Source of the DNA: Candidatus Omnitrophota bacterium
GTDB lineage: Bacteria; Omnitrophota; Gorgyraeia; Gygaellales; Profunditerraquicolaceae
Assembly: GCA_022013085.1 (NCBI GenBank)
Contig: JAKLQX010000056.1
Span: 1-47,552, forward strand
Direction: 5' to 3'
DNA length: 47,552 bases
This document shows positions 17,927 through 47,004 of this stretch, piece by piece. The notes under the pieces were generated by a model. It had not been told where the DNA came from. It did no database searches and saw only the letters and a program-made list of their open reading frames with translations. The translations under genes were made by a program, and so were the position numbers. Each line of letters begins with the position of its first letter. The stretch's first letter is position 1.

Positions 17927-19222
17927 CTAAACGCCCTCAATTCTTATAGCTATGGATTTTTCCTTAATATCGGTTAATTTATCAATCATCTTTAAGGCGC
18001 TGCGCAGGCTTTTTTCTTTTGCCTGGTGGGTGATCATAACTACTGGGACAACCTGTGATTTTAATTTCTCTTTTTGTGTTACGGAAGCAATACTAATGCC
18101 GTATTTTGCCAAAATTCCTGATATCTTAGCTAATACACCAGGTTTATCTATTGCCATAATACGTATATAGTATTTATTTTCAAATTCATCTATTTTGCGT
18201 AAACCTTTAATTAAATTATCTTCTACCGTATTTAAGGTCGGACGGAATAGGCCAGCTTTTATATCTTGAGTAAGGTCAACTATATCAGAAACAACCGCTG
18301 AAGCAGCAGATAATTGGCCTGCTCCTGGCCCGTAAAACATAAGATCGCCTGCTAAGTCGCTGGATACATAAATAGCATTAAAAACTCCGTCTACTGAAGC
18401 CAACAGGTGTTCTTGTGGCAAGAAAGTTGGGTGTACTCGAACTTCCAGTTCATTGCCTTCTTTTTTTGCAATAGCAAGTAGCTTTATTGTGTATCCTAAC
18501 TCTTTGGCGTAATTTATATCTGCTAAGGATATATGAGATATGCCTTCAATAAATATATCCTTAAGGTTGACTATTCTTCCAAATGCTAAGTAAGTTAGTA
18601 GTACTAATTTATGCGCTGAGTCAATGCCTTGAATATCTAAGCTGGGGTCTTTTTCGGCAAAACCCTTTGCTTGCGCCGCGCTGAGGGCAGTTGAGAAGGT
18701 GCAGTTTTCATCAGACATTTGCGTAAGCACGTAGTTTGACGTGCCGTTAACAATTCCAAAGACACAACTAAATTTATTAGCTATCAAACCTTCTCTGATT
18801 GATTTTATTATCGGTATTCCCGCCCCTACTGAAGCCTCAAAGTAAATATTCTTGCCTCTTTCGGATGCTTCCGCAAATAACTCTAAGCCATGCTCAGCAA
18901 GCAAAGCTTTGTTTGCGGTAACTACATGTTTTCCCTTCTTTAAAGCGCTTAATATATAATCTTTCGCGAGGGTAGTCCCTCCCATTAATTCTACAACAAT
19001 ATCAATCGCCGGGTCGTTAAGAACTAAATTGGCATCACTGGTCAGTAAAGATTTATCTATCAAAACATCTCTTTTTTTTGTAGTATCTTTATCGCAGATT
19101 TTTTTTATAGCGATTTCAATCCCGATTTTTTGAGCAAGAAAAGCCTTTCTTTGTTGAAGGATTTTTATGACCCCACATCCTACATTACCGAAACCAATTA
19201 GGCCGATATTTATTTTCTTCAC
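17927..19222 (-). CDS. hom: Homoserine dehydrogenase
   Basis: 431 aa. GFGNVG Rossmann motif, C-terminal ACT domain. GTG start. Confidence 0.95.
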   Translation of the reverse strand: MKKINIGLIGFGNVGCGVIKILQQRKAFLAQKIGIEIAIKKICDKDTTKKRDVLIDKSLLTSDANLVLNDPAIDIVVELMGGTTLAKDYILSALKKGKHVVTANKALLAEHGLELFAEASERGKNIYFEASVGAGIPIIKSIREGLIANKFSCVFGIVNGTSNYVLTQMSDENCTFSTALSAAQAKGFAEKDPSLDIQGIDSAHKLVLLTYLAFGRIVNLKDIFIEGISHISLADINYAKELGYTIKLLAIAKKEGNELEVRVHPTFLPQEHLLASVDGVFNAIYVSSDLAGDLMFYGPGAGQLSAASAVVSDIVDLTQDIKAGLFRPTLNTVEDNLIKGLRKIDEFENKYYIRIMAIDKPGVLAKISGILAKYGISIASVTQKEKLKSQVVPVVMITHQAKEKSLRSALKMIDKLTDIKEKSIAIRIEGV

Positions 19223-19299
19223 CCCGCACCTTCTTTCTTATTTAATTTGTTAAACCGCATGGCTTTAATAGTTGAATAATTAGAAGGTGCGGGGTTCAT
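19219..19299 (-). CDS. 26-codon mini-ORF inside a palindromic cassette upstream of hom (copy A)
   Basis: ATG at 19299. Peptide is MNPAPSNYSTIKAMRFNKLNKKEGAG. Its TGA overlaps the hom GTG (GTGA). The ends of the ORF form a perfect 14-bp inverted repeat (19221..19234 and 19282..19295). Confidence 0.35.
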   Translation of the reverse strand: MNPAPSNYSTIKAMRFNKLNKKEGAG

Positions 19300-21956: not shown

Positions 21957-23411
21957 TTAGTTAAAAGGTAATTTAATCGTAAAAGTTGTCCCTTGATTAA
22001 CTTGGCTTTTTAATTCAATTGATCCGTTATGATTTTTAATAATGTTATGACAGATTGATAAGCCTAACCCAGTGCCGTCGTGTTTCGTTGAAAAAAAAGG
22101 CATAAAAATGTTTTTTAGTTGGCTTGGCGGTACTCCGGTTCCCGTATCGCTAATTTGTATTTGCGCATAAAGATTCTGAAAATTGCTTGTGGTAATTTCA
22201 ATTACTCCGCCGTTTGGCATGGATTGACAAGCGTTTATGAGAAGGTTAAGAAAAACTTCCTGCAGCTGGTGCAAGTCCCCCTTTATTTTAGGCATCTCCT
22301 TTTCAAAGTTTTTCTTTATTTCAATTTTAGACATCGGAAGATTATTATAGTAAATAAGCGGTAAAACTAACTCAATGGCATCGTTTATCGCAATTGCTTC
22401 AAAAGTGGGGGTTGTTTTACGCGAGAATTTTAAAATTCTATCGACAAGTTTACGAATACGGTCAGTTTGAGCGCCGATTAAATTAAGGCTGTTTTTAACT
22501 TTTTGGTTAAGCCGTTCATCTTTGAGCATTTCCAATCTTCCGGATATGACAAAAAGAGGGTTATTAATTTCATGCGCCATACCCGCGGAAAGTTGGCCTA
22601 AGGCTGCTAATTTTTCCGCTTGGAATATCTGGTATTCTAATTTTTTTCTTTCAGTGATATCTTTTGCAATAAAAATATAACCTGAGAGTTTTCCGGTTGA
22701 ATCCAGGAATTGATTAACGGTTAAAATTACCGGAATAGTTCCGTTAGTTTTAGTAACTAGGTCTATTTCAGTTTCATATTTACCGAAATTGCGTACGTTT
22801 TCCAGAATAGATTGTAAATTAGCCGCAGAGTCAAAATTGTGCAGAATGGAAACGTGTTTAAAAATGATGTCTCGTTTGTTCCAGCCTAGCATTGTTTCTG
22901 AACCCATACCAAAATAGGTGATATTCCCATCCAGGTTAATCAAATATAAGGCATATTCTTTTATTCCGGAAAAGATATTCTTTAACGTTTCCCCGATATT
23001 TTTTAGCGAAGATTCTCTTTCTTTAGTCTCAGTAATATCGTGTCCGACCAATATGTTTCCTTCGATCTGGTTATTTTCAGCCTGAATTGGAGTAAGATTC
23101 CAAGCAATAAACCTTTCGTTACCTTCCTTATCCAGGATGGCTCCTTCAAAATCCTTGCCTCTTTTATACTTCATGGAATCATCCATGACTGCTTTGAGCA
23201 GGTCCTTTTTTATGATGCTATTTTTGTTGCGGAATAATATACTGAGCCAATTTTTACCGATGATTTGTTCATGATTAAGGCCGGTTATGTCTTTTAATTT
23301 TTTATTGCAGAAAATAACGTTTTCATGATTATCTAAGTAAAGCATAATTACGCCCGAGTTATCGAGCAATTTATGAAGCATCTCTTTAGTTTCTTCAATA
23401 GTTATTTTCAT
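21957..23411 (-). CDS. PAS-domain sensor histidine kinase
   Basis: H-box AHEINNPL, G-boxes DTGTGV and GTGLGLS, two PAS-like segments. Start set at MKITIEE, because the longer track ORF overlaps a tRNA-Gly fragment. Confidence 0.9.
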   Translation of the reverse strand: MKITIEETKEMLHKLLDNSGVIMLYLDNHENVIFCNKKLKDITGLNHEQIIGKNWLSILFRNKNSIIKKDLLKAVMDDSMKYKRGKDFEGAILDKEGNERFIAWNLTPIQAENNQIEGNILVGHDITETKERESSLKNIGETLKNIFSGIKEYALYLINLDGNITYFGMGSETMLGWNKRDIIFKHVSILHNFDSAANLQSILENVRNFGKYETEIDLVTKTNGTIPVILTVNQFLDSTGKLSGYIFIAKDITERKKLEYQIFQAEKLAALGQLSAGMAHEINNPLFVISGRLEMLKDERLNQKVKNSLNLIGAQTDRIRKLVDRILKFSRKTTPTFEAIAINDAIELVLPLIYYNNLPMSKIEIKKNFEKEMPKIKGDLHQLQEVFLNLLINACQSMPNGGVIEITTSNFQNLYAQIQISDTGTGVPPSQLKNIFMPFFSTKHDGTGLGLSICHNIIKNHNGSIELKSQVNQGTTFTIKLPFN

Positions 23412-23423
23412 TTTCTGTTTTAA

Positions 23424-23463
23424 AGCGGGAGAGGGGAATCGAACCCCCATATATTTGTGCTTG
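23424..23463 (-). pseudogene. tRNA-Gly 3'-half fragment
   Basis: CAAGCACAAATATAT-GGGGG-TTCGATT-CCCCT-CTCCCGC-T. T-arm and 3' acceptor strand are intact. The anticodon-stem strand is disrupted relative to GCTAT. No CCA. Confidence 0.7.
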
Positions 23464-23512
23464 CCCCGCCGGTCTATTAATAATTTGGCGGGGTCCCGCC
23501 TCGTCTCTATTC

Positions 23513-23586
23513 TGGAGCGGGTGATCGGAATCGAACCGACATATATAGCTTGGAAGGCTATTATTCTACCATTGAACTACACCCGC
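23513..23586 (-). tRNA. tRNA-Gly (TCC), CCA encoded
   Basis: GCGGGTG-TA-GTTC-AATGGTA-GAAT-A-ATAGC-CTTCCAA-GCTAT-ATAT-GTCGG-TTCGATT-CCGAT-CACCCGC-T-CCA. Confidence 0.92.
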
Positions 23587-23603
23587 ATAATAATCTTAAT
23601 ATT

Positions 23604-23644
23604 GGCGGGAGAAGGCTATTGTTCTACCACTGAACTACTCCCGC
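23604..23644 (-). pseudogene. tRNA-Gly 5'-half / internally deleted fragment
   Basis: GCGGGAG-TA-GTTC-AGTGGTA-GAAC-A-ATAGC-CTTC, followed directly by TCCCGCC. The acceptor strand matches the 3' fragment at 23424..23463, not the intact tRNA-Gly. Confidence 0.7.
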
Positions 23645-23658
23645 GTCGGTAGAATTCT

Positions 23659-23959
23659 TGGGCAGGAGAGGATTCGAACCTCTGAAGCACAGGTGCAACA
23701 GATTTCAAGTGCCCTCAAGTTACCTTGAGGCTTGGACTATCTCATCACCTTGGCTATAAATAGCTTTAGGCGGTAGGCGCTTAGTCTCTGCACCTTCCCT
23801 CCCTCTTGGTTTCGCAAGATAACGGGAGGGCTTGGCTCAGGATTGCCCTTAACTTTTAAGTCAAGGGGTTCCCTGAATTCACCTACTTTTCCATCTCGCT
23901 TCTCAACGAGACGCTGCGTTTACACAGTCTGTCCCCTTTGGCCACTTGGGTACCTGCCC
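23659..23959 (-). tRNA. tRNA-Tyr (GTA) interrupted by a group I intron
   Basis: Exon 1 is 23959..23924 (GGGCAGGTACCCAAGTGGCCAAAGGGGACAGACTGT). Exon 2 is 23705..23659 (AAATCTGTTGCACCTGTGCTTCAGAGGTTCGAATCCTCTCCTGCCCA). Joined, they give a canonical class II tRNA whose anticodon arm CAGACUGUAAAUCUG matches E. coli tRNA-Tyr. Confidence 0.9.
23706..23923 (-). ncRNA. Group I self-splicing intron (IC3-like core), 218 nt, no internal ORF
   Basis: The 5' exon ends in U, which can form a U-G wobble with intron GCAG (P1). The intron ends in G. Core strings UCAGGGAA, GGGCAAUCCUGAGCCAAGCC, AAGGUGCAGAGACU and AGUCCAAG are near-identical to cyanobacterial tRNA-Leu introns. P9 is CCUCAAG-GUAA-CUUGAGG. Confidence 0.88.
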
Positions 23960-24557
23960 ATATTAAAACAAAATCTTTAATCCAATTGTCTATTATTCCT
24001 AATAATTTCTTGTCATTATACCTAATATGCACCAAACCATAAATTAATTTTCTTTTACTTAAGTTAGGGTTACCTTTTCTAATAAAAGGTTTGGTAAATT
24101 GCTTTAAAGAAATTTTTGTTAGATTATGCCAATATAATTTTAAAGAATTTACATTTTGATAGGAATATCCGTAAAGATAAACTCTCAACCGCTCTTCTTT
24201 TGCACCGCAAATTTCTCTTAAAAATCTTAAAAAAATTTTTATCATTTTCGGGTTACTATTTACAAAATCCACAGAATTACCTTTTGATGTTCCTTCGGCC
24301 CAATATAGCATAATTCCCGCTATTTTCAATTTCTCTTCCGCGATAGATAAATCAGTCTTGATCCTAAATTGAGGTCTACTTTTATTGACAACATAATTAA
24401 CTTCGGAAAAAGAACGACGTGGTATATTATTCTCGCGCATAAAATCATGCAAGCGCCACATCGAAATATTTAATCTCTTAGCGGTTTCTTCTAAATTACG
24501 TTCTTCGTTCCAATACAGGCTTTTAACTTCGTTAACATCAAGAATACTTTTATTCAT
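23883..24557 (-). CDS. HTH plus LAGLIDADG-like putative homing endonuclease, free-standing
   Basis: 224 aa. N-terminal HTH (LEETAKRLNISMWRLHDFMRENNIPRR). IAGIMLYWAEGTSKGNSVDFVNSNPKMIKIFLRFLREICG resembles a single LAGLIDADG motif with the following beta-sheet scaffold. The last about 25 codons read through tRNA-Tyr exon 1 and 41 nt of the intron. Confidence 0.55.
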   Translation of the reverse strand: MNKSILDVNEVKSLYWNEERNLEETAKRLNISMWRLHDFMRENNIPRRSFSEVNYVVNKSRPQFRIKTDLSIAEEKLKIAGIMLYWAEGTSKGNSVDFVNSNPKMIKIFLRFLREICGAKEERLRVYLYGYSYQNVNSLKLYWHNLTKISLKQFTKPFIRKGNPNLSKRKLIYGLVHIRYNDKKLLGIIDNWIKDFVLIWAGTQVAKGDRLCKRSVSLRSEMEK

Positions 24558-24566
24558 ATATTTTTT

Positions 24567-24639
24567 AGCCGGCGAGAGGAATCGAACCCCCGACCTTTTG
24601 TTTACAAAACAATTGCTCTACCAACTGAGCTACGCCGGC
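24567..24639 (-). tRNA. tRNA-Thr (TGT)
   Basis: GCCGGCG-TA-GCTC-AGTTGGTA-GAGC-A-ATTGT-TTTGTAA-ACAAA... T-loop TTCGATT. No CCA. The 5' end lies 1 nt after the nnrD stop. Confidence 0.9.
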
Positions 24640-42830: not shown

Positions 42831-44025
42831 TATATAACTTTATTACTTTTAAGGCATCCACAGCCCGGGTAATTTGCGGATCAGTTTTATAATCAAACGT
42901 ATTTTTAATATCCCAGCCGGCAGATTGGCTTTCCTTATTCGCTTCTATTATAATATCTGGTGTAACCCCTAACCCATGAATAATTTTTCCAGATGGAGTA
43001 AAATAACGGCTGGTAGTAAGCCTTAATGCTGAGCCATCTCTTAATGGTATAACGGTTTGCACTGAACCCTTACCAAAAGATTTTGCGCCTATTATTATTG
43101 CGCGTTTATAATCCTGTAAAGCTCCGGCAACAATTTCACTGCCAGAAGCAGATCCTTCGTTAATCATAATTACAAGTGGCAACTCACAAATAGAATTTTT
43201 ACTTTCGGAATAGAATTTAAGATTTTGATCTTCTCTCCTGCTTTTAGTATAAGCGATCAATTTATTTGGCTGGATAAACTTTCCTGCAATTTTTACAGCC
43301 ACATCTAATAAGCCGCCAGGATTATTACGTAAATCAATGATTAACGCATTCATCCCCTGTTTAGATAAATTACTCAAAGCATTATTAAATTCTTGCAACG
43401 TATTTTCACGAAATTCGGTTAATCGAATATAAGCGATTCCGTTAACAAGCATAAGTGCGTGTTTAATATCTTTAATTTTAATTATCGCTCTAGTGATTTT
43501 AAAATCTAAAAGCTTCTTTTCCGTGTCTCGTAATATGGAAAGGCTTACGCTTTCTCCTGTCTTACCGCGCATTTTTTTTACTGCATCAGTTATAGTCATT
43601 TCACGAGTTAACGCGTCATTTATTTTTACAATATGGTCATTGGGCTTGATGCCTGCTTTCCAGGCCGGGGTATCTTCAATGGGAGTAATTACAGTAAGTA
43701 AGCCATCTTTAATGGTGATCTCAACACCCAGCCCTCCAAATTTACCTTCTGTATCTATTTTTAGATTATTATAAGTATCCGGATCCATAAATTGACTATG
43801 TGGGTCAAGTGAAGAAAGCATTCCTTTTAATGACCCATAGATTAAATCCTTAGGTTTTGCCTCGTCCACATAGTCATTTTTTATAATTGCCAAAGTATCA
43901 GAAAATAATTCTACTTGGCGGTAAAGCTCATCTTTATTTTTCTTTTCATTGTTAGTTTGCGCAACTGAAACCCCCATAAATATGGTAAAAGATAACACAA
44001 CGATAATAAATAAATTTTTACGCAT
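42820..44025 (-). CDS. Carboxy-terminal processing protease (S41) with PDZ domain
   Basis: 401 aa. Signal sequence, PDZ domain, GSASGSEI catalytic Ser and downstream Lys. Confidence 0.92.
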   Translation of the reverse strand: MRKNLFIIVVLSFTIFMGVSVAQTNNEKKNKDELYRQVELFSDTLAIIKNDYVDEAKPKDLIYGSLKGMLSSLDPHSQFMDPDTYNNLKIDTEGKFGGLGVEITIKDGLLTVITPIEDTPAWKAGIKPNDHIVKINDALTREMTITDAVKKMRGKTGESVSLSILRDTEKKLLDFKITRAIIKIKDIKHALMLVNGIAYIRLTEFRENTLQEFNNALSNLSKQGMNALIIDLRNNPGGLLDVAVKIAGKFIQPNKLIAYTKSRREDQNLKFYSESKNSICELPLVIMINEGSASGSEIVAGALQDYKRAIIIGAKSFGKGSVQTVIPLRDGSALRLTTSRYFTPSGKIIHGLGVTPDIIIEANKESQSAGWDIKNTFDYKTDPQITRAVDALKVIKLYNEK

Positions 44026-45452
44026 TAAGATAACCTCCGCCTTATCAATTCTTGGACTGTTTTAGGATTAGCCTTGCCCGCGCTTTTCTTCATTACTTGG
44101 CCTACTAAATACATAAGTGCGTTTGTTTTTCCAGCCTTAAAATCATTTGCAGGTTTCGTATTTTCCCGGATAACCGTAAGGATAATTTGTTCAAGCTCGC
44201 AAGTCGCAGAAATCTGTAATAAATTATTTTCATTTATCAGTTCAAGCGCTGATTTTTTGGAATCAAGCATCTGGGATAAAACGCTTTTAGCAGATAGGTG
44301 CGAGATCTCTTCTCGAGCAACGAAACCAATTAAATTAATTAACTCAAGGATAACAACTCCTGTTTCGTGTAAATTAATTTTTTTAGCATGTGCCTCAGAC
44401 ATTAAAGGCCCAATTAACCAGTTAACTATATGTTTTTTATCTTTTTCCGGGTACTGCTTTAAACACTCTTCCGCAAATTCACTATCTTTTTTAGAGCTAA
44501 CTAAGATTCTTGCGTCGTATTCGGATAAAGAATAATCCATCATAAAACGTTTCAGCTTATCTTGAGGTAATTCTGGAAGTGATTCTTTTATATTATTGAT
44601 TTGGCCTTGGTCAATAATAAAGGCTGCTAGGTCCGGATCAGGAAAATACCTGTAATCCTTAGCCCCTTCTTTACTACGCATGGATATAGTCATCCCTTTT
44701 TCTGCGTCCCATAACCTAGTTTCTTGCAACATAGCGCTCCTGTTAACAAGTAGCTCAGTTTGACGAATTACCTCAAATGTCAAAGCGTCTTTTACTCCTT
44801 TAAAGGAGTTCATATTTTTAAGCTCAGTTTTGATACCAAGCTCTTTTACGCCTTCGGGCCGTAAAGAAATATTTGCATCGCAACGCAAAGACCCTTTCTC
44901 CATATCGCAATCAGAAACATCTAGATACTCAATAATACTTTTTAAGCTAGTTAAATAATCAAAGGCTTCTTGGGGGCTGGATATTTCCGGTTCGCTTACA
45001 ATTTCAAGTAGTGGAATTCCTGTACGATTAAAATCCACTAAGCTTATATTTGCCTCATGGATGAGCTTACCAGCATCTTCTTCCAAATGTACTCGGGTTA
45101 TACCAATACGTTTGGAATTTTGTCCCGTAGTAATATTCAGGAATCCATTTTTTGACAAAGGCAGGTCAAACTGTGAAATCTGATAGTTTTTTGGCAGGTC
45201 AGGATAAAAATAATTCTTGCGATCAAATTTAGTATGCTCTTGAATCTGGCAATCTAAAGCCAAAGCTACTTTAATGGCGGAGTTTAGCGCCTGTTTATTA
45301 TAAACCGGGAGTGTTCCGGGAAATCCTAGGCATACCGGGCAGCAACTAGAATTAGGGGTTTTCCCAAAATCAATAGCGCAACCACAAAATGCCTTGGTTT
45401 TAGTTTTTAGCTGTAAATGTACCTCTAGCCCTATAACAGTTTGGTATTTCAC
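44025..45452 (-). CDS. gatB: Asp/Glu-tRNA amidotransferase subunit B
   Basis: 475 aa. VIGLEVHLQL opening. GTG start. Confidence 0.96.
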   Translation of the reverse strand: MKYQTVIGLEVHLQLKTKTKAFCGCAIDFGKTPNSSCCPVCLGFPGTLPVYNKQALNSAIKVALALDCQIQEHTKFDRKNYFYPDLPKNYQISQFDLPLSKNGFLNITTGQNSKRIGITRVHLEEDAGKLIHEANISLVDFNRTGIPLLEIVSEPEISSPQEAFDYLTSLKSIIEYLDVSDCDMEKGSLRCDANISLRPEGVKELGIKTELKNMNSFKGVKDALTFEVIRQTELLVNRSAMLQETRLWDAEKGMTISMRSKEGAKDYRYFPDPDLAAFIIDQGQINNIKESLPELPQDKLKRFMMDYSLSEYDARILVSSKKDSEFAEECLKQYPEKDKKHIVNWLIGPLMSEAHAKKINLHETGVVILELINLIGFVAREEISHLSAKSVLSQMLDSKKSALELINENNLLQISATCELEQIILTVIRENTKPANDFKAGKTNALMYLVGQVMKKSAGKANPKTVQELIRRRLS

Positions 45453-45550
45453 CCCGTACCTTCTTTCGTATTCAGAATTATTCCAATATCTATGCTCTCA
45501 AACCTTAATATTTTAAAATATAATGAATAATTAGAAGGTGTGGGGTTCAT
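45449..45550 (-). CDS. 33-codon mini-ORF inside the palindromic cassette between gatA and gatB (copy B)
   Basis: The ATG overlaps the gatA TGA (ATGA). Peptide is [33 protein letters not shown]. Its TGA overlaps the gatB GTG (GTGA). Arms lie at 45451..45464 and 45533..45546. Confidence 0.35.
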
Positions 45551-47004
45551 AGCTTGGGTTTTAATTTATGCCACTGGGTATTTTGCTCATATACATGCGC
45601 TACTCTAAAAAGTACCTCTTCATTAAATGCTTTAGCCATAATTTGCAAACCTACTGGCAGGCCGTTTTTAGTAAAACCGCAAGGAATAGATATTGCCGGT
45701 ATTCCAGCTAAGTTAACCGATATGGTGTATATATCCGAAAGGTACATTTCCAGTGGATCTTTTGTTTTTTCTCCGATTTTAAATGCCGCAGTAGGGCAAG
45801 TAGGAGTGATAATGCAATCAAAATCTTTGAAGATTTTATCAAAATCCTGTTTTATAAGCGTTCGCACTTTTAAAGCGCGTAAATAATACGCATCGTAATA
45901 ACCGTGAGATAAAGCAAACGTTCCCAAGATAATTCTGCGTTTTGCTTCGTCACCAAATCCCTCCCCGCGTGTTTTTTTGTACATTTGGATTAGATTATCT
46001 GATTTTGCCCGGTAACCATACTGCACTCCATCAAATCTAGCCAAATTGGAACTTGCTTCAGCAGTCGCGATAATGTAGTAGACTGGGACAGCGTACTCTG
46101 TATGCGGTAATGACACTTGATGTGAAAAAGCGCCTAAAGTATTAAGTTTAGCTATAGCCTCTTGGATAATAATTTTAACCTCAGCATCCATGCCATCAAC
46201 AAAATATTCTTTAGGTATACCAAATTTTAAACCTTTAATATCTAATCCTAAACTTTTAGTATACTCTGGTACAGGTTGATTTATGGAAGTAGAATCTTTT
46301 GGGTCGAAACCCGAGATAATTTGGCTTAAAATTGCTGCATCACGCACATCTTTAGTAATTGGCCCAATCTGATCTAAACTCGAAGCAAAAGCAATTAAGC
46401 CAAAGCGTGAAACTCGGCCATAAGTAGGTTTTAATCCTACAACGCCACAAAAAGATGCAGGTTGGCGGATTGAACCTCCGGTATCTGAGCCTAATGCCCA
46501 GATTGCCTCATCAGAGGCTACAGCAGCAGCGCTGCCACCTGATGAGCCACCAGGAACACAATCTAAATTCCACGGATTATGCGTTGAACCGAAATATGAA
46601 TTTTCAGTTGAAGATCCAAAAGCAAACTCGTCCATATTTGTTTTTAAAGGAAAGATCTCCGCAGAAGCCTCTTTTAGCTTATTGATTACTGTAGCATTAT
46701 ATGGCGGGTTAAAACCTTGTAGTATTTTTGAACAGCACTCTGTAATAAAGCCTTGAGTACAAATATTATCTTTAATGCTAATGGGTAAGCCATATAAATT
46801 AAGGCCATTCCGGCCGGGCTCTTCAGCTTTAGTTTTTATACTCTTAGAAGAAATGAGTTTATCCATTCTGACATAAGCTTTTACTTTTTTATCAGTCTTT
46901 TGTATACGCGTATAAAGCGCGTCCTGTATAGCTTGAGCAGTAGCTTCTTTTTTTGAAAGCTTATCCAGTAACTCATGAGCTGTTAAATGATTAAGTTCAG
47001 TCAT
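45547..47004 (-). CDS. gatA: Glutamyl-tRNA(Gln) amidotransferase subunit A
   Basis: 485 aa. Amidase signature [12 protein letters not shown]. Confidence 0.96.

Follow-up and report, generated by a model that had tools for sequence, protein, structure and literature searches.

What is a reading frame of 33 residues doing between gatA and gatB? The question is raised by a stretch of DNA from a Candidatus Omnitrophota bacterium (47,552 nt in length, contig JAKLQX010000056.1; hereafter, the window), which is contig C41 of a 1.39-Mb genome (G000; 108 contigs, 39% GC). On its minus strand, an open reading frame (ORF) of 102 nt at 45449-45550 encodes 33 residues and a stop codon and is chained to both neighbours: its ATG overlaps the stop codon of gatA (ATGA) and its TGA overlaps the GTG start codon of gatB (GTGA), as described in the first-pass annotation of this DNA and borne out by the ORF listing. 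The frame given there is right, whereas the count of 33 codons refers to sense codons and becomes 34 with the stop. That annotation left three readings open, namely a peptide, a strand-specific RNA hairpin and a tiny transposable element that happens to preserve translational coupling. The last of these is the one that the evidence favours; the peptide fails on the fate of its frame among copies, and the strand-specific RNA gains no support from the arms, which lack strand bias. Four features lay outside the view of that annotation, namely the nuclease-bearing parent, the TGAN duplication, the specificity for start codons and the empty sites of relatives. Taken as a whole, the observations are very probably best explained if the gatA-gatB cassette is a non-autonomous, internally deleted copy (a MITE, for miniature inverted-repeat transposable element) of a mobile element of about 295 bp that resides in Omnitrophota.

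The two ends of the cassette (27 and 19 nt) are found elsewhere in the window only at 19219-19299, against 0 and 0.03 occurrences expected from shuffled sequences, in agreement with the recurrence noticed at first reading. This second cassette (copy A, the one between gatA and gatB being copy B) lies between an unnamed 118-aa ORF and a homoserine dehydrogenase gene. The peptides of the two copies do have MNPxPSNYS, K..RF and KEGxG in common, and the shared arginine is encoded by CGG in one and AGG in the other, both points as originally reported. Pairing of the arm cores CCCGCACCTTC and GAAGGTGCGGG across the genome yielded 48 elements in G000. Two size classes stand out, one of 81 nt (21 copies, 15 of them in a tight subfamily) and one of 102 nt (five copies, including that between gatA and gatB); the remaining copies have odd lengths of 48-153 nt, except for one of 302 nt. 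The 13-bp stem is perfect in 25 of the 48 copies, and 11 of its 13 positions pair in copy B. An ATG..TGA frame is open in 29 copies and broken, by stops or frame-breaking lengths, in the other 19.

Every well-formed copy has the layout A-TGAN-CCCC...GGGG-TGAN when read in the sense direction. The fourth base is the same on the left and on the right in all 37 copies that have TGA at both ends (33 A, 3 G, 1 T), and therefore the element proper extends from CCCC to GGGG and is accompanied by a 4-bp duplication; three more copies have other matching flanks (TCAA twice, TAAA once). The ATG of the mini-ORF is thus host sequence, in copy B the original start codon of gatB (45550 plus the left TGAA), and the downstream GTG is composed of the last G of the element and the duplicated TG.

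Evidence of mobility comes from relatives that lack the insertion. In eight of them, with GatB proteins 70-80% identical, gatA and gatB overlap as ...CT ATGA AATA with nothing in between. The nearest sister genome (G010), whose flanks are 93-98% identical in DNA, has a single ATGAA at this junction, so that precisely the 94-nt element and one TGAA are missing; the empty sites of the eight relatives and G010 read CT/TT ATGAAATA. Comparison of the gatA-gatB spacers in relatives, which the first-pass annotation had proposed as a check, comes out as absence of the insert in these genomes. The homoserine dehydrogenase site is likewise empty in G010 (...taattt ATGAAGAAAATA), as are all seven testable loci, each with a single xTGAA, among them both window copies and the nuclease-bearing 302-nt copy described below; the locus at C44:31926 has no counterpart in G010 and is uninformative. 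Arm 11-mers number 1 in G010 compared with 75 in G000. These filled and empty pairs demonstrate mobility and confirm the target duplication. Table 1 gives the coordinates of the features in the window, where Pfam identifies the neighbouring genes as gatC, gatA (Amidase) and gatB, with the GatB_N domain starting at residue 5 of the GTG-initiated protein.

Table 1. Parts of the gatA-gatB cassette, its neighbours and the second copy in the window (positions are those of the window).
Feature	Position	Strand	Remarks
Element proper, 94 nt, 102-nt subfamily	45452..45545	-	First C of left arm to last G of right arm; exactly these nt are missing in G010
Left target duplication TGAA	45546..45549	-	Supplies the gatA stop (TGA); completes the mini-ORF ATG after A at 45550
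Right target duplication TGAA	45448..45451	-	TGA ends the mini-ORF; with the last G of the element (45452), forms the present gatB GTG
Left terminal inverted repeat	45533..45545	-	Sense CCCCACACCTTCT; one G-to-A relative to consensus CCCCGCACCTTCT
Right terminal inverted repeat	45452..45464	-	Sense AGAAGGTACGGGG; one G-to-A relative to consensus
Mini-ORF, 33 codons, MNPTPSNYS...KEGTG	45449..45550	-	No Pfam match
gatA, 485-aa ORF	45547..47004	-	Stop codon inside the left copy of the target duplication
gatB, 475-aa ORF	44025..45452	-	Starts at GTG composed of the last base of the element and TG of the right duplication
Copy A, 73-nt element, 81-nt subfamily	19222..19294	-	On the homoserine dehydrogenase start codon; TGAA at 19295-19298 and 19218-19221

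A start codon is the usual landing place. Of the 37 well-formed copies, 34 have their xTG in the frame of an ORF of 80 aa or more that lies downstream, and in 21 the upstream ORF stops within ATGA; the downstream gene has the same orientation as the copy in 45 of 47 cases. The reconstructed empty sites resemble ordinary start regions, in which SD-like (Shine-Dalgarno-like) purines are followed by A/TGAA, the slash marking the point of insertion. According to a rough census that relies on a home-made ORF map, ATGAA is present at about 230 first start codons and at about 510 other positions between genes (binomial P ~1e-14); together with the 34 of 37 copies, this places the occupancy of start codons far above random expectation. 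The same pattern is seen in a second species (G024), where, among 20 copies fetched, 16 have matching duplications and 16 are on start codons. Several of these copies are stacked on the GTGAA that an earlier insertion had produced. At four loci of that species (L149, L151, L154 and L160) copies are in tandem, the right arm of one serving as the left flank of its neighbour; GTGAA created by one insertion looks as if it were a favoured target for the next. G000 also has nested insertions, at C64:6268-6378 and C103:34514-34621, which share one internal position within the copies that house them. In one case an 81-nt copy houses a 26-nt palindrome made of arms only, which has a TGAA duplication of its own; in the other, a copy of 72 nt, flanked by duplicated TAAA, lies within another copy. 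As the 26-nt palindrome consists of arms only and has duplicated TGAA, the arms alone appear to be sufficient for mobilisation.

The longest copy reveals the parent. It is the only nuclease-bearing copy in G000 (302 nt, C58:6426-6727; L184:251-552), resides on the start codon of a purN-like gene and encodes a GIY-YIG domain in a frame that is split by the loss of 1 nt in an A-run, which could mean that the gene is truly a pseudogene, that the assembly is at fault or that the frameshift is programmed. Between the same 13-bp arms, intact GIY-YIG ORFs of 303-321 nt (100-106 codons) are present in other species and metagenomes, in the pattern MNPAPS...GIY-YIG core...KEGAG-stop, and extend from the host ATG to the duplicated TGA. 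The arm-bounded nuclease genes occupy five junctions, namely gcvPA-like/gcvPB-like (so named only from the sequences at which these genes end and start), dCMP deaminase/nrdR, ABC ATPase/permease, RND adaptor/pump and purN-like. In independent gene calls, the ORF overlaps its neighbours by 4 nt; at the ABC and nrdR sites this holds for either side, whereas at the RND site it is confined to the downstream side, the upstream gene stopping 5 nt short of the element. The dCMP deaminase/nrdR site is empty in G000. More than 110 protein clusters of this nuclease type exist, mostly labelled Omnitrophota and with many members annotated from an internal Met.

The parent protein, as predicted from its sequence, is a single-domain GIY-YIG nuclease related to Slx1 and UPF0213. 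It matches Pfam GIY-YIG (PF01541) with an E-value of 1e-16 and has the invariant residues Y15, Y26, G28, R36, H40 and E60; Foldseek retrieves Slx1 (probability 1.0, TM 0.6) and UPF0213, which are the closest by sequence and by fold alike. In the predicted structure, the arm-encoded residues 1-8 and 95-100 are low-confidence, disordered tails. Within the body of the nuclease gene, pairwise dN/dS values are 0.09-0.18 at dS >1, and the first 18 and last 15 nt are identical across seven nuclease copies, synonymous positions included; purifying selection acts on the nuclease gene, and the constraint on the arms is one on DNA. Distant homologues (44-48% identity) have different, still palindromic arms (CCCCGCCCTTCC / GGAAGGGCGGGG) and the same ATGAA...GGGGTGA frame. 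Three other GIY-YIG genes of G000 (on C80, C99 and C105) were considered as the parent and rejected, as they lack these arms. At C105:4303-4697, a different small GIY-YIG gene is bracketed by a second inverted-repeat family, CGTCATTCTGAGG ... CCTCAGAATGACG, which is present at some 15-20 other places in G000 and whose start resembles the NTS/SRM box (CGTCAT) of the published Ssn system discussed below. Elsewhere (L091 and L092, from G003 and G055), other GIY-YIG paralogues adjoin unrelated hairpin repeats (GCATCTC...GAGATGCAACGGGGCA), one of these genes having three stops; these two loci suggest that the genus contains several nuclease-repeat pairs.

The relationship of the short cassettes to this parent can be traced. 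In the 81-nt consensus, the initial 28 nt of the full element are followed directly by its final 53-60 nt, 222 nt having been lost in frame. The 102-nt form has both ends of the full element and, compared by eye with the 81-nt consensus, about 21 extra nt in its right half. On this evidence, the cassettes of both classes are identified as in-frame internal deletions of the nuclease element, and the shared peptide motifs are therefore relics of the two ends of the nuclease. Because many copies have the same deletion boundaries, they multiplied as short forms instead of decaying separately in place. The family has what defines a MITE: terminal inverted repeats, a target duplication, precise empty sites and a longer, gene-bearing and putatively autonomous form with the same ends.

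These features can be combined into a scheme of how the element would enter an operon and be tolerated there. A complete element has two 13-bp (extended, about 24-bp) inverted-repeat arms around one GIY-YIG gene of 100-106 codons that possesses neither a start nor a stop codon of its own. Insertion takes place at A/TGAA on a host start codon, with duplication of TGAN; the host ATG then starts the frame of the element and the second TGA ends it, and the last G of the element together with the duplicated TG provides the host gene with a new GTG start, 4 nt after the SD-like GAAGGTG. In the case of gatA and gatB, the native ATGA overlap has been split into two, one joining the gatA stop to the mini-ORF start and the other joining the mini-ORF stop to the gatB start. 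The nuclease may mobilise full and gene-less forms alike, probably acting on the arms as a hairpin or cruciform, by analogy with Slx1, which cuts branched and hairpin DNA according to database entry titles, and with the hairpin-directed Ssn nucleases. A ribosome that starts at the old ATG would melt the arm hairpin and re-initiate at the GTG, leaving gatB expressed, and such read-through and restart probably leaves the neighbouring genes expressed in general.

Several observations bear on the translational part of this scheme. The consensus right arm contains the Shine-Dalgarno-like GAAGGTG 4 nt ahead of the GTG, and the predicted sense hairpin (-25.8 kcal/mol at gatA-gatB, -33.6 kcal/mol in copy A) buries both this box and the first base of the GTG. 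G000 uses canonical Shine-Dalgarno sequences, with GGAGG enriched 13-fold, and the distance at which AGGTG most often precedes native ATGs, 4 nt, is also that in the arm; the usage was inferred from upstream k-mers, the 3' end of 16S rRNA having been looked for in the assembly and not found.

A number of points weigh against parts of this interpretation. Copy B itself has a weakened SD-like box, GGTG having become GGTA. The preference for start codons may be due partly to selection against other sites, since the insertions nested in other copies show that a start codon is not strictly required. In four other metagenomes, the gatA-gatB insertion is present wherever contigs span it and the copy is fixed, with no empty-site joint at gatA-gatB among their contigs, which drop rare variants. 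The copies differ internally from their consensus by 7-29%, whereas the host differs from the element-free G010 by only about 5%, so that a single recent burst does not explain them; the contrast suggests that the source pool was diverse or was supplied horizontally, or else that copies were precisely excised in the lineage of G010. The second species, G024, has more than 39 element copies and no close nuclease homologue, and with the cognate nuclease of G000 frameshifted as well, current mobility is doubtful. Finally, to our knowledge no lone GIY-YIG nuclease transposes, and host factors or another enzyme may be needed.

The last two points also favour a different mobiliser. The arms could belong to a conventional insertion sequence (IS)/MITE or REP system whose mobiliser is a transposase of the DDE or HUH/RAYT type, with the GIY-YIG gene as a passenger or a settled homing endonuclease: GIY-YIG enzymes are not known as transposases, and G024 is rich in MITEs while lacking the nuclease. 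Nevertheless, every gene-bearing copy examined holds only the GIY-YIG ORF, which extends exactly from the target ATG to the duplicated TGA, and the arms co-vary with the divergence of the nuclease. Arm pairs up to 320 nt apart enclose nothing else, although no genome-wide search for RAYT or DDE genes was made, and elements of the REP/IS200 type make no target duplication, unlike the element described here. We therefore regard a conventional transposase as an unlikely source of the mobility.

The idea that the host selects the element mainly for an RNA hairpin that acts in cis, whether to stabilise mRNA, to attenuate or to regulate translation, fares slightly worse and is judged very unlikely. 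It draws on the stability of the sense hairpin (-25.8 to -33.6 kcal/mol), on the co-orientation of the copies with transcription and on the inner stem of the 81-nt family, where sense G.T outnumbers A.C in 22 versus 4 cells and at 7 versus 3 positions. The inner stem, however, has no double compensatory pair and few independent positions, and its sense bias fits a strand-specific single-stranded DNA substrate equally well, so that it can be taken only as a weak hint for an mRNA hairpin or a single-stranded DNA substrate alike. In the arms, the 48 copies provide 624 arm-pair cells, among which 13 are compensated, 12 are mismatched, six are sense wobbles and seven are antisense wobbles, a balance from which it follows that the palindrome is maintained without strand preference. 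Moreover, the same operons are expressed in the sister genome G010 without any copy, and target duplications and a nuclease-bearing parent are marks of mobile DNA. The first-pass annotation had correctly pointed out that copy B has one transition per arm relative to the consensus, which produces two adjacent A.C mismatches on the sense strand and G.U pairs on the plus strand. Positions 45457 and 45541, however, read the consensus base in four other metagenomes; the transitions are ordinary mutations private to this assembly, and for this reason, and given the lack of strand bias in arms genome-wide, they were rejected as evidence for an RNA on either strand.

The remaining proposal, that the mini-ORFs encode functional small proteins (26-33 aa) translationally coupled into operons, is the least credible of all. 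Its N- and C-termini are conserved among copies, and all 15 core 81-nt copies and all five 102-nt copies are open, where random placement of substitutions predicts 11.2 and 3.6 (P ~0.012 and 0.17, respectively, the former value not being corrected for shared descent). The open frame, though, is inherited from the parent ORF through the in-frame deletion, and the conserved termini are DNA-level inverted repeats, with synonymous sites that are invariant in them while dS exceeds 1 in the nuclease body, and correspond to the low-confidence tails of the full protein in the predicted structure; better-than-chance openness fits mild selection for read-through, not for a product. With frames broken in 19 of the 48 genome copies, the outcome that the first-pass annotation had said would argue against a peptide, pN/pS of 0.5-0.6 among copies, changes spread evenly across the three codon positions and no family match in Pfam, a peptide gene is rejected.

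The gatA-gatB junction of G024 (L022:2480-2510) contains a remnant of its own, a 15-nt in-frame piece of a left arm that adds MNPTPY to the N-terminus of GatB. This remnant has the G-to-A arm variant of the window copy, even though other populations of the species to which the window belongs lack that variant. It suggests repeated use of the site, or partial deletion.

The closest experimental precedent for the proposed mechanism is Ssn (Chenal et al. 2025, Nat Commun, PMC11893778), a single-domain GIY-YIG nuclease of about 94-100 aa whose gene lies between NTS/SRM hairpin repeats that are also scattered as many gene-less copies, a repeat-gene-repeat layout that the authors likened to an insertion sequence. 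The hairpin is bound by Ssn in its single-stranded DNA form and on just one of the strands, and cleavage falls in the flank, a few nt upstream (PMC11893778). The likeness comprises the small single-domain GIY-YIG protein, the gene bracketed by hairpin repeats and the gene-less copies. Unlike the element described here, however, the Ssn paper reports no target duplication, start-codon insertion, borrowed start or stop codons or empty sites, and the words 'start codon', UPF0213 and Omnitrophica are absent from it (PMC11893778); among solved relatives, the nuclease described here is nearest to UPF0213 and Slx1. A regular expression derived from the published SRM motif has four matches in G000, none of them in the 48 elements or their flanks. 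One of the four, at C104:38179-38206, is a near-perfect match to the Neisseria NTS consensus (TGTCATTCCCGCGAAAGCGGGAATCTGG).

Among mobile elements proper, the Chunjie MITEs of Geobacter and the Correia MITEs of Neisseria are similar in being short, with terminal inverted repeats, a target duplication, tens of copies and size variants. Such operon MITEs are also alike in residing inside operons and in being internal-deletion derivatives of a longer element (for Chunjie, according to a 2024 review). Known MITEs, however, derive from DDE-type insertion sequences, whereas the parent here is about 300 bp, is filled from end to end by a nuclease ORF and inserts on a start codon; GIY-YIG and start codons both go unmentioned in the 2024 review, which covers prokaryotic MITEs. 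The REP/REPIN-RAYT and IS200/IS605 systems (compared on the basis of established knowledge and of the Discussion in PMC11893778) resemble the present element in their palindromic hairpins, in the small nuclease-type gene that these repeats flank, in a strictly kept orientation and in a target that is short and specific, but they employ HUH tyrosine enzymes and make no target duplication, in contrast to the GIY-YIG gene and the 4-bp duplication in 37 of 37 copies here. Rickettsia palindromic elements (RPEs) are also palindromic and still translated after insertion, with the frame kept; they are in-frame fusions inside host ORFs, whereas the present element has its own frame between ORFs, the only RPE-like fusion being the decayed 15-nt remnant at gatB in G024. 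Free-standing GIY-YIG homing genes (phage seg, I-TevI type) are likewise wedged between host genes at sites that are empty in close relatives. The nuclease described here differs from them in lacking a DNA-binding domain, its best NCBIfam match (a group I intron endonuclease model) being far below the cut-off, and the element differs in its many unrelated sites, inverted-repeat ends, target duplication and multiplied gene-less derivatives. Full-text searches on GIY-YIG together with MITEs, target duplication or start codons yielded no description of this arrangement.

Outside these elements, the window contains direct repeats with GGAATCGAACC at 23395-24597, which resemble the T-arm regions of several clustered tRNA genes.

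What is new here is a MITE/IS-like element with an Ssn-like pairing of nuclease and hairpin; both kinds were known separately. It is possible, and we put it forward tentatively, that the full-length form represents a new, autonomous kind of insertion sequence, which targets host start codons at A/TGAA and, at about 295 bp with one 100-residue Slx1-like GIY-YIG protein, would be by far the smallest. If the nuclease moves the elements, GIY-YIG enzymes would take a place beside the DDE, HUH, serine and tyrosine enzymes that drive bacterial transposition, and the unit moved would measure under half of the smallest known insertion sequence. Pairs of nuclease and arm are, in addition, candidates for DNA tools that recognise a site or a structure, as has been proposed for Ssn. 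For annotation, hundreds of 'hypothetical' ORFs of 26-33 aa and GTG starts in Omnitrophota records are probably artefacts of these insertions. Insertion on a start codon, with a borrowed ATG, a duplicated TGA and a donated Shine-Dalgarno sequence and GTG, amounts to an unusually clean selfish design for neutrality, which would explain how a repeat could multiply inside the tightly packed operons of 1-Mb genomes. If the full-length form is autonomous, it would spread in this way through the operons of streamlined bacteria, here the Omnitrophota, at almost no cost to the host.

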